Assembly: GCF_014698145.1 (NCBI RefSeq)
Contig: NZ_JACJSM010000001.1
Coordinates: forward strand, 152,633 to 216,632
Direction of reading: 5' to 3'
DNA: 64,000 nt
From: Oscillatoria sp. FACHB-1406
GTDB taxonomy: Bacteria; Cyanobacteriota; Cyanobacteriia; Cyanobacteriales; Spirulinaceae
The notes beneath the pieces were generated by a model. The model made no database searches. It saw nothing but the letters and a program-made list of their open reading frames with translations, and had not been told where the DNA came from. Below, piece after piece: positions 36,595 to 38,331 of the stretch. Numbering within the stretch: position 1 is the stretch's first letter; each line of letters begins with the position of its first letter. The position numbers and the translations under genes are program-made.

Positions 36595-37339
36595 CAATAT
36601 TCAGAGCGTAGGGGCATAACACTTTATGCCCAAAAAAGTCAGGTCTCAAACCCGAAAAACCCCAATAATCCGACATTGGCATACAATCAATATTCAGAGC
36701 GTAGGGGCATAACACTTTATGCCCAAAAAAGTTAGGTCTCAAACCCGAAAAAACCCCAATCATCCAAGATTGGAATACCATCAATATTCAGAGCGTAGGG
36801 GCATAACATTTTATGCCCAAAAAAGTTAGGTCTCAAACCCGAAAAAACCCCAATCATCCAAGATTGGAATACCATCAATATTCAGATTGTAGGGGCATAA
36901 TATTTTATGCCCAAAAAAGTTATGTTTCAAACCCCAAAAAACCCAATCATCCAACATTGGCATACCATCAATATTCAGAGCGTAGGGGTATAACATTTTA
37001 TGCCCAAAAAAGTTACGTCTCAAACCCGAAAAAACACAATCATCCAAGATTGGAATACCATCAATATTCAGAGCGTAGGGGCATAATATTTTATGCCCAA
37101 AAAAGTCAGGTCTCAAACCCCAAAAAACCAAGTAATCCAACATTGGAATACCATCAATATTCAGAGCGTAGGGGCATAACACTTTATGCCCAAAAAAGTT
37201 ATTTCCCAAACCCGAAAAACCCAAATCATCCAACATTGGCATATAATCAATATTCAGAGCGTAGGGGCATAACACTTTATGCCCAAAAAAGTTAGGTCTC
37301 AAACCCAAAAAACCAAATCATCCAACCTTGGCATATAAT
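36595..37339. repeat. tandem array of eight ~92-93-bp units, each carrying a REP hairpin (GTAGGGGCATAACACTTTATGCCC)
   Basis: Units start with CAATATTCAGAGCGTAGGGGCATAAC... and differ by scattered substitutions. The whole unit is repeated, with no unique spacers. Listed ORFs on both strands here are repeat artefacts. Confidence 0.85.
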
Positions 37340-37389
37340 CAAAGACGGGCTGCAAGCAAATTCACAACATTGTTACAGCATAATATTTA

Positions 37390-37418
37390 CAGGGCATAAC
37401 AGTGTTATGCCCCTACAG
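37390..37418. repeat. REP palindrome (family C) flanking the 5' side of the RAYT gene
   Basis: CAGGGCATAACAGTGTTATGCCCCTACAG. Confidence 0.8.
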
Positions 37419-37450
37419 ATCGCCATTACTAACTTAGAGATGAAAACGCA

Positions 37451-38008
37451 ATGAAATACGATCCGCAAATTCATCATCGACGGTCTATTCGCCTCAAAAA
37501 CTATGACTATCGACAAAATGGAACGTATTTTATTACTCTTTGTACCTACGAGAAACAATGTTGGTTTGGCAAGATTGTTGGAGGCGAAGTCCATCTCAAT
37601 GCTCTCGGTAAAATTGCCCGTTCCTGCTGGCAGGAAATCCCCCATCATTTCGATGGAGTGAATTTAGATGTTTTCGTTATCATGCCCAATCATCTTCACG
37701 GTCTTTTGACAATTCTGCACGAAACAGCTTGGAGTTCTGAGGCAACCCAAGAATTTGGCAAAATGGTCAGCGGTTCAGTTTCCTCAATTCTCCGTTGTTA
37801 CAAAGCGGCTGTTACTCGTAAAATTAATCTGCTCTGCAATAGTAAAGCTTATCCGATTTGGCAGAAGAATTATTACGAACACATCGTTCGCGATGAAGAG
37901 TCTTTGAGTTCAATTCGTCAGTATATTATCGATAATCCTCTAGTTTGGGAAAATGACCCGGAATATCTTTCTGTAGGATGCAGTCTTGAGTTGGATTTAC
38001 AGTTTTGA
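37451..38008 (+). CDS. REP-associated tyrosine transposase (RAYT; IS200/IS605-like HUH Y1 transposase)
   Basis: YFITLCTYEKQ, the HUH motif VIMPNHLHGLL and a downstream catalytic-Tyr region (NYYEHIVRDE). The 185-aa ORF is flanked on both sides by the same REP palindrome. Confidence 0.8.
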   Translation: MKYDPQIHHRRSIRLKNYDYRQNGTYFITLCTYEKQCWFGKIVGGEVHLNALGKIARSCWQEIPHHFDGVNLDVFVIMPNHLHGLLTILHETAWSSEATQEFGKMVSGSVSSILRCYKAAVTRKINLLCNSKAYPIWQKNYYEHIVRDEESLSSIRQYIIDNPLVWENDPEYLSVGCSLELDLQF

Positions 38009-38100
38009 GCATAACCGGGCATAACCGGGCGTAACCGGGCGTAACCGGGCGTAACCGGGCATAACCGGGCATAACCGGGCATAACCGGGCGTAACCGGGC
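38009..38100. repeat. tandem 10-mer array, (G/A)CATAACCGGG x9, running into a REP
   Basis: Starts immediately after the RAYT stop codon. The unit equals one REP half-site (GGGCATAAC) and the array ends in the complete REP at 38097-38123. Confidence 0.85.
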
Positions 38101-38331
38101 ATAACAGTGTTATGCCCCTACAGAATTTGGCGATTTATGTAATGTTAATATCTTCTGTTATACCAATTCCCAATCCTGATGCACTCAATTTTATGGGTAG
38201 GGACAGAGGGCATAACAATGTTATACCCCAACAGAATTTGGCGATTTATGTAGTGTTGATATCTTCGTTAAATCAATTCCTAATTGTGATGCACTCAATT
38301 TTATCTGTAGGGGCATTGCACTGCAATGCCC
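38097..38331. repeat. two tandem ~110-bp REP-containing units downstream of the RAYT
   Basis: REP + CAGAATTTGGCGATTTATGTA(A/G)TGTT(A/G)ATATCTTC...GCACTCAATTTTAT occurs twice, with REP variants GGGCATAACAATGTTATACCCC and GGGGCATTGCACTGCAATGCCC. The listed ORF 38112..38459 is an artefact. Confidence 0.7.

Follow-up and report, generated by a model that had tools for sequence, protein, structure and literature searches.

A probable REPtron in Oscillatoria sp. FACHB-1406, with a divergent RAYT gene among GTAG REP hairpins and an eight-copy head-to-tail REP array

A stretch of 64,000 nucleotides from the cyanobacterium Oscillatoria sp. FACHB-1406 (contig NZ_JACJSM010000001.1, positions 152,633 to 216,632; hereafter the window) contains an open reading frame (ORF), at positions 37451–38008, that a preliminary description had assigned to the repetitive extragenic palindromic (REP)-associated tyrosine transposases (RAYTs). 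The locus around this ORF is very probably a REPtron, that is, a single domesticated HUH/Y1 transposase gene (RAYT/TnpAREP) amid cognate GTAG REP hairpins. Upstream of the gene is a tandem array of eight REP-bearing units, a microsatellite made of one reiterated REP arm abuts its stop codon, and a variant REP with compensated stem changes lies farther downstream (Table 1). The locus holds no element of a new kind; the array, the arm microsatellite and the compensated variant make it a well-furnished example of what one would expect to find in a cyanobacterial genome.

A hidden Markov model (HMM) search of the ORF translation, which includes the segment MPNHLHGLL, had been suggested as a check and gave a divided answer: both NCBIfam REP_Tyr_transpos (NF047646; E 4.9e-19, 68.6 bits) and, weakly, Pfam Y1_Tnp (PF01797; 17.3 bits) matched, but both scores lie under the curated cut-offs (80 and 23 bits, respectively). 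By the NCBI threshold, the protein is a divergent family member and not an 'equivalog'. A large protein search resulted in 5745 homologues, mostly cyanobacterial, several of which carry the JGI name 'REP element-mobilizing transposase RayT', and in an alignment of 24 homologues the residues H81, H83, Y158, N162, P163 and W166 are invariant. A search of the PDB with the RAYT sequence alone found nothing relevant; the match to 4er8 (E. coli TnpAREP; E 1e-3) needed a profile built from these 24 homologues. The profile aligns MPNHIHG with LPEHMHC and RQ-Y-IINNP with VD-Y115-IYINP, which places H81 and H83 of the HUH motif opposite H59 and H61 of the E. coli enzyme, Y158 opposite Y115, and N162 opposite the metal ligand N119; the position of the metal ligand H123 is occupied by Trp in the window RAYT. 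Since Y115, H59 and H61 are catalytic in E. coli TnpAREP and N119, H123 and E161 are further metal ligands (PMC3479197), the HUH motif, the Tyr and the Asn are in place in the window RAYT. The AlphaFold model of the protein (pLDDT 81.2) has 4er8_A as its best Foldseek match in the PDB (E 8.6e-8, TM 0.53/0.59), followed by the ISDra2, IS608 and IS200 transposases. The assignment to the RAYTs stands on the aligned HUH and Tyr residues, the nearest structure of the model and the names of the homologues, and the ORF product is best read as a divergent RAYT-branch Y1 HUH enzyme with its catalytic residues predicted to be intact.

The gene is bordered on each side by one and the same palindrome, as had been described: two identical 25-nt REPs, both with the GTAG tag on the minus strand, lie at 37392–37416 and 38097–38121. 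The canonical REP can be written GTAGGGGCATAAC-ACT-GTTATGCCC, and exact copies of GGGCATAACAGTGTTATGCCC followed by CTAC are found at these two positions and at 3602–3626; the 21-mer is absent from 100 shuffles of the sequence. If one mismatch is allowed, the 13-mer GTAGGGGCATAAC occurs 12 times in the window against 0.03 expected. Folded as single-stranded DNA, all REP copies form a stem of 8–9 bp with GTAG(G) unpaired (z −1.8 to −5.0); the REP ahead of the gene gives −8.7 kcal/mol (z −5.0, GTAG unpaired), and the weakest fold is that of a degenerate array unit at 36982 (z −1.84). The copies thus have the form that characterizes the GTAG superfamily of REPs, a short palindrome of 20–40 nt flanked on one side by a GTAG that stays unpaired, and the gene lies, as a RAYT gene is expected to, between REPs of which further copies are present elsewhere (3602 and 33997).

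Downstream of the gene, the two REP-containing units of about 110 bp reported previously were recovered, with 38097–38155 and 38208–38266 being 92% identical and 38157–38205 and 38267–38315 being 84% identical. The REP of the second unit (38208–38232) has decayed: its tag reads GTTG in place of GTAG, its stem contains one mismatch, and it folds at −5.2 kcal/mol. In the variant REP at 38307–38331, the inner stem is altered on both arms with pairing retained, a compensatory change. Both scattered copies named in the preliminary description were also found. The one placed at 3600–3628 is an exact canonical REP, and the element placed at 33998–34240 has inverted arms that start with REP halves (34001–34225). 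This second element has inverted arms of 43 nt (TTCATTAGTGTCAACTTAAG...) with CATTG on both sides, as if a miniature inverted-repeat transposable element had inserted in a REP hairpin with a 5-bp target duplication, and the split REP is followed by a partial arm duplication (GTTATGCCCTGTTATGC).

The 10-bp microsatellite is one of two features that go beyond the preliminary description, the other being the AT-richness of the locus. It begins at the first base past the stop codon and continues into the downstream REP, and its unit, GC(A/G)TAACCGG, is one REP arm reiterated. Similar REP-arm duplications adjoin the RAYT genes of four related loci (L085, L128, L130 and L131) and were found at 4 of 118 dispersed REPs. 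These duplications may have arisen by slippage at a stalled hairpin or may be footprints of faulty cleavage and rejoining.

The association of this REP type with this gene family was then examined in other genomes. When 185,579 species genomes were scanned for exact matches to the REP pattern, at least 120 stretches contained one, and those listed come from Crocosphaera, Nostoc, Gomphosphaeria, Cyanothece, Microcystaceae, Geminocystis and a few non-cyanobacterial metagenome-assembled genomes (MAGs). A RAYT homologue was detected by tblastn in only 2 of the 120 stretches listed, so the REP is a dispersed element in those genomes. One of the two, from Gomphosphaeria aponina (L085), carries a 49%-identical RAYT with the same REP on its flanks. 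Twelve further homologous loci were fetched, and in 13 of 14 homologous RAYT loci GTAGGG-tagged palindromes lie within 500 bp of the gene (the fourteenth has an imperfect one), which bears out the proposed link between such REPs and this ORF family in related genomes. The homologues from Nostoc and Dolichospermum (58–59% identity) are flanked by GTAGGGGTTTAGCAATGCTAAACCCCTAC, and other RAYT loci have hairpin bodies such as GGGCATAAT..., GGGCAGAAT... and GGGTTTAAC... or long-loop palindromes, for example GTAGGGACACGGCAT...ATGCCGTGTCCCTAC. The GTAGGG tag is constant across lineages, and the hairpin body varies. In eight loci, a minus-tagged REP lies 14–110 nt ahead of the RAYT start codon (35 nt at the window locus), a position that suggests a role in the expression of the gene. 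The homologous RAYT genes are single genes in differing chromosomal contexts.

Two side observations concern where the REPs of other genomes are located. Several RAYT homologues contain an in-frame GTAG...CTAC REP within their own coding sequence, in a variable loop just past the HUH motif (positions 3275–3303 of L125 and 4170–4198 of L085; proteins P0014, P0053, P0037, P0047, P0086 and P0101). One such coding REP is GTAGGGACATGGCAATGCCATGTCCCTAC, translated as ..RDMAMPCPY, and the segment 'VGARHAVPL' that recurs in RAYT homologues resembles translated GTAGGGGCACGGCATGCCGTGCCCCTA; the window RAYT has no REP insert in its coding sequence. Exact copies of the same cyanobacterial REP of 24–25 nt are also present in MAGs labelled Thermotogales or Thermotogaceae (L017, L020, L021 and L089) and in other non-cyanobacterial MAGs (L057, labelled Caldilineaceae, and L029, L043 and L069), which could be due either to contamination at the binning stage or to the REP/RAYT pair having spread between phyla.

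The anatomy of the locus parallels that of known REPtrons. In E. coli K-12 (tnpAREP/yafM amid bacterial interspersed mosaic elements, BIMEs; structure 4ER8), a single HUH/Y1 gene lies among its own REPs, as does the one copy found in the window, and these REPs, like those of the window, are hairpins with an unpaired 5' GTAG; the HUH and catalytic Tyr residues of the two enzymes align, and 4ER8 is the nearest fold. The structure-based identity is only about 20%, however, and the window RAYT differs from E. coli TnpAREP in having a conserved N-terminal RRSIRLxxYDY segment, Trp at the H123 position and no alignable E161 tail. The stem of the window REP pairs perfectly over 9 bp and lacks the bulge on which E. 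coli TnpAREP depends. Like those of the window, the GTAG REPs described from cyanobacteria, filamentous as well as unicellular, fall into several families in each genome, and each family has its own REPtron (PMC3733652); RAYTs of Group 4 are 'common in Cyanobacteria' (Bertels et al. 2017, PMC5581495). The window REP (GTAGGGGCATAAC...) resembles the GTAG families of Di Nocera 2013 by type and was not matched to a numbered family; its string did not occur in the literature text searched, and the sequences of the Di Nocera families are given solely as a figure.

By homology with E. coli TnpAREP, from which we infer the enzymatic activity, the RAYT protein would bind a REP folded as single-stranded DNA, recognizing both the hairpin and the 5' GTAG that is left unpaired. 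It would then cut and rejoin nearby DNA through a covalent Tyr158–DNA link, with a metal held by H81 and H83, and so would spread or rearrange REPs without copying its own gene. A TCT that directly precedes GTAG and is conserved in the three REPs nearest the gene is a candidate cut site. To our knowledge, the mode of REP multiplication is unsettled and RAYT transposition in vivo has not been reconstituted. A compact REPtron of this kind may offer a convenient natural substrate set for the biochemistry of RAYTs from outside the Proteobacteria, as perfect-stem REPs, a compensated variant, an arm microsatellite and an eight-copy array all lie within 1.8 kb of the gene. The product of the ORF is named only 'transposase' in the database entry for Oscillatoria sp. 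FACHB-1406 (100% identity); this generic label should be replaced by RAYT, with the REPs annotated alongside.

The upstream array, described earlier as eight units of about 92–93 bp, was recovered by Tandem Repeats Finder (TRF) at 36594–37342 with a period of 93 bp, 8.0 copies, 91% matches and no indels; a separate repeat search gave unit spacings of 92–94 bp. All units are on the plus strand and head-to-tail, with GTAG starting at 36608, 36701, 36795, 36889, 36982, 37075, 37168 and 37261. Each holds GTAGGGGCATAA(C/T)A(C/T)TTTATGCCC, and the hairpin that follows GTAG in every unit is GGGCATAA-NNNN-TTATGCCC. The statement that each unit bears the same palindrome as the gene flanks is correct only in part: a GTAG hairpin is present in all eight, but it is one base shorter and in the opposite orientation, with an 8-bp stem and a 4-nt loop compared with the 9-bp stem and 3-nt loop of the gene-flanking REP. 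The non-REP part of the unit, about 69 nt, had no BLAST match in the rest of the window or in 136 loci, and TCAATATTCAGAGCGTAGGGG had 0 matches in JGI metagenome contigs. As this inter-REP part is unique to the array, the array is a local amplification.

The mean column identity of the array units is 90%, and pairs of units differ at 1–13 nt, or up to 14%, with units 2 and 3 nearly identical; the array is old enough for divergence yet is turning over still. Variable columns make up 5 of 46 in the REP-proximal half of the unit (the A-run, the hairpin, GTAG and the 14 nt 5' of GTAG) and 18 of 48 in the distal half (p=0.004). If the stem and tag are taken separately, 1 of 20 columns is variable, compared with 20 of 70 in the remainder of the unit (p 0.03). 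Both ends of the array share TCAA, in that the first unit opens with ...TTTTTTCAATATTC and the last closes with ...ATAATCAAAGACG, an arrangement compatible with a first duplication at a microhomology. We infer an origin of the array on this basis: most likely, one REP and about 69 nt of flank would have been duplicated head-to-tail at the short TCAA microhomology, after which slippage, unequal recombination or strand transfer catalysed by the RAYT beside its own gene would have made the array grow and shrink.

Other known repeat architectures were considered for the array. Each unit holds one REP and none is inverted, so the units are not REPINs (inverted REP doublets), and since all eight REPs have a single orientation the array is not a BIME either; the sole facing pair consists of the last array REP and the REP at 37392, 107 nt apart. 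A CRISPR array was rejected, as the segments between the REPs recur too, with about 90% identity, and there are no unique spacers. A coding array, brought into consideration by ORFs of 160 aa that stay open on both strands owing to the period of 93 = 3 × 31, was rejected because the frame is lost at the units that are 94 or 92 bp long.

The satellite-like amplification of REP units had been called unusual, which is an overstatement: it has precedents (PMC3116915, PMC3733652 and PMC8266576) and recurs in the clade of this RAYT; what is large here is just the copy number, 8. Tandem REP arrays or RAYT-adjacent clusters are known from Pseudomonas, from E. coli and from the survey of Di Nocera 2013. 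P. fluorescens SBW25 has REP tandem arrays of up to 12 copies, as well as ordered tandem REPIN clusters with their flanks, one beside each of three RAYTs (PMC3116915). The window locus shares with SBW25 the tandem REP units that include flanking DNA and the position of the cluster beside a RAYT (Bertels & Rainey 2011, PMC3116915), but the SBW25 clusters are mostly REPINs or alternating GI and GIII REPs, whereas the window units have one REP each in the same direction. Cyanobacteria are known to have GTAG REPs and REPtrons, with clusters 'reiterated in tandem along with flanking DNA' (PMC3733652). Because head-to-tail REP pairs are rare and under-represented in most genomes (Di Nocera 2013, PMC3733652), a purely head-to-tail array of eight copies is at the uncommon end of the known range.

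Among the related loci, tandem arrays of GTAG hairpins were found within 900 bp of 4 of 14 RAYT genes compared with 3 of 118 dispersed REP loci (Fisher p 0.002), a comparison that applies a single fixed criterion to a small sample and was designed after seeing the data. Arrays adjacent to RAYT genes at other loci have units of 68 bp (3.0 copies, L128), 82 bp (2.6 copies, L133) and 93 bp (2.1 copies, L135), and looser repeats adjoin the RAYT genes of L134, L132 and L085. No REP array of more than two copies was found in 907 kb of other REP-carrying genomes. Two pairs of near-identical loci encode the same RAYT protein within each pair and differ by exactly one repeat unit, of 82 bp between L132 and L133 (99.3% identical) and of 93 bp between L135 and L136 (100% identical); the difference may be a real polymorphism or an assembly collapse. 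Together, the enrichment of arrays on the RAYT side and their variation between near-identical assemblies provide a handle on whether the enzyme acts in cis.

The array might instead be a neutral satellite with no relation to the RAYT: an intergenic segment with a REP in it by chance would have been multiplied through replication slippage, and its place beside the gene would be a coincidence. We consider this unlikely, though not negligible. The TCAA microhomology at the unit boundaries, the divergence of the units (up to 14%, next to a single pair duplicated recently), and the free decay of the distal half of the unit are what such a satellite would display, but the enrichment of arrays beside the RAYT genes of the clade (4/14 against 3/118), the RAYT-adjacent clusters of Pseudomonas (PMC3116915) and the lower variability of the stem and tag of the REP than of the rest of the unit (1 of 20 columns compared with 20 of 70, p 0.03) argue for a connection with the enzyme. 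At the other extreme, the head-to-tail arrays on the RAYT side could constitute a 'REP nursery', where the enzyme would work by preference in cis to multiply and vary its own substrates. This proposal is prompted by the enrichment of arrays beside RAYT genes and their variation in copy number between near-identical strains, by the conservation of tag, hairpin and 5' flank while the remaining unit decays, and by the arm microsatellites and compensated stem variants that the arrays adjoin; we regard it as speculative and rather improbable. In that case, these features could be the traces of cleavage and rejoining gone wrong, or of a 93-nt circle copied in a rolling-circle-like fashion.

Several observations weigh against reading the locus as a REPtron. 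The RAYT protein scores under the curated thresholds of both NF047646 and PF01797, and its closest homologue is only 59% identical. The array REPs, being a variant shorter by 1 nt, are candidate substrates of the enzyme, and only two family copies lie outside the locus within the 64-kb window (3602 and 33997), both intergenic. The earlier designation as a complete system presupposes that the REP is dispersed throughout the host genome; dispersal was demonstrated in other genomes. The gene-flanking REPs point the same way, like the ends of an IS200/IS605 element, whereas E. coli BIMEs are mixed or inverted. The GC content at third codon positions (GC3) of the RAYT gene, 0.371, is below that of all 35 other long ORFs of the window (0.515 ± 0.060, minimum 0.380), which suits a recent import better than long-term vertical domestication. 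The 36.6–38.4 kb stretch as a whole is AT-rich, with 37–46% GC (38% in the array and 41% in the RAYT gene) compared with 49.6% for the window, and the low GC hints that it was imported from a cyanobacterium with a lower GC content; in such cyanobacteria the identical REP is common.

One alternative is that 37392–38121 is an autonomous IS200/IS605-like insertion sequence (IS) of the form hairpin–gene–hairpin, recently transferred, with the REPs being its ends and debris. The identical, direct flanking REPs resemble the left-end and right-end hairpins of IS608, the AT-rich locus and the low GC3 of the gene are in keeping with transfer, and the fold matches the TnpA proteins of IS608 and ISDra2; these elements and the window locus have in common the Y1 HUH fold and, at either end, subterminal hairpins that lie on one strand. 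In contrast to IS200/IS605 elements, however, the gene is present in one copy in the window and the 90% cluster of its protein consists of a single member from a single contig, no tnpB is found in the window, and in other genomes the hairpins are dispersed alone, with the REP lacking the gene in 118 of the 120 stretches listed. The nearest structure and the profile match are moreover TnpAREP and not an IS transposase, and the homologues are single genes in different chromosomal contexts. A mobile element of this kind is therefore very unlikely, and the REPtron remains the preferred reading.

It is just as hard to credit that the array is a row of small-RNA genes on the minus strand, with a promoter and a terminator in each unit and the REP incidental, as is reportedly the case for the tandem small-RNA genes of the NsiR1 array of Nostoc, each unit of which has its own promoter and terminator: a consensus scan did find, in 7 of 8 units, the promoter-like minus-strand pattern TTGAGA-17-TAAA(A/G)T, some units have a hairpin and a T-run, and the T-runs are invariant across units, but when all eight were folded the terminator-like stem beat shuffles only in units 2 and 3 and was broken in the other six without compensating changes, variation is concentrated in the terminator-bearing half of the unit, the −10-like hexamer is the REP loop, Rfam gave nothing at the gathering threshold in the region (best match E 0.77, chance level), and the unit has no copies outside the array in the rest of the window, the 136 loci or the metagenome scan.

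Table 1. Features of the RAYT locus and related REP copies, in window coordinates
Feature	Position	Strand	Basis and remarks
Tandem array, 8.0 × 93 bp; unit = one GTAG REP + ~69 nt flank	36594–37342	+	TRF
Canonical REP upstream of the gene, 5'-GTAGGGGCATAACACTGTTATGCCC	37392–37416	−	Exact match; 35 nt ahead of the start codon
RAYT/TnpAREP-like HUH Y1 nuclease gene	37451–38008	+	Open ORF, 185 aa; HUH = H81-L82-H83, catalytic Tyr = Y158
10-bp microsatellite (GCRTAACCGG) × 9.7	38009–38105		TRF, 95% matches
Canonical REP downstream of the gene	38097–38121	−	Exact match; orientation as in the upstream copy
Two ~111-bp direct repeats, each opening with a minus-tagged REP	38097–38317		Repeat search
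Variant REP GTAGGGGCATTGCACTGCAATGCCC	38307–38331	+	Same tag and GC clamp; fold −10.4 kcal/mol
Solitary canonical REP	3602–3626	+	Exact match; 45 nt past the stop codon of the ORF ending at 3557
REP split by a ~200-bp inverted-repeat element in its loop	33997–34234	+	Inverted-repeat search

The genes on either side of the locus are both on the plus strand. The upstream neighbour (34607–36538) encodes a Ser/Thr kinase fused to an FGE-sulfatase domain, and the downstream neighbour, starting at 38500, looks like a threonyl-tRNA synthetase, judged by its translation alone. The REPs of the locus are not the only ones in the window, as at least four additional GTAGGG-hairpin families are present. 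A composite repeat of about 110 bp occurs twice (30020–30130 and 52125–52230) and consists of two different GTAG REPs tail-to-tail, GGTGGGCGCTGCCCACCCTAC and CTGTAGAGACGTTGTATACAACGTCTCTAC separated by 8 nt, and further GTAGGG-hairpin families are found at 29963 and 52039, from which it follows that the genome holds several REP families; a search for a second RAYT in the window found none. Just 3' of both the 34001 element and the REPtron are a short repeat, GTAGGGTGGG(C/A)A... (34335–34355, 34460–34473 and 38370–38383), and a 38-nt direct repeat (34436–34473 and 38346–38383, 87% identical).

Unrelated to the REP/RAYT locus, Rfam identified a 6S RNA gene at 40607–40792 (minus strand, 82.4 bits) and a tRNA gene at 59326–59397 (minus strand). 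The ORF at 6122–10069 holds two tandem arrays with a 93-bp unit, at 7721–8620 (9.7 copies) and 9227–9798 (6.2 copies), which look like coding repeats of 31 residues, and the period that they have in common with the REP array appears to be a coincidence.

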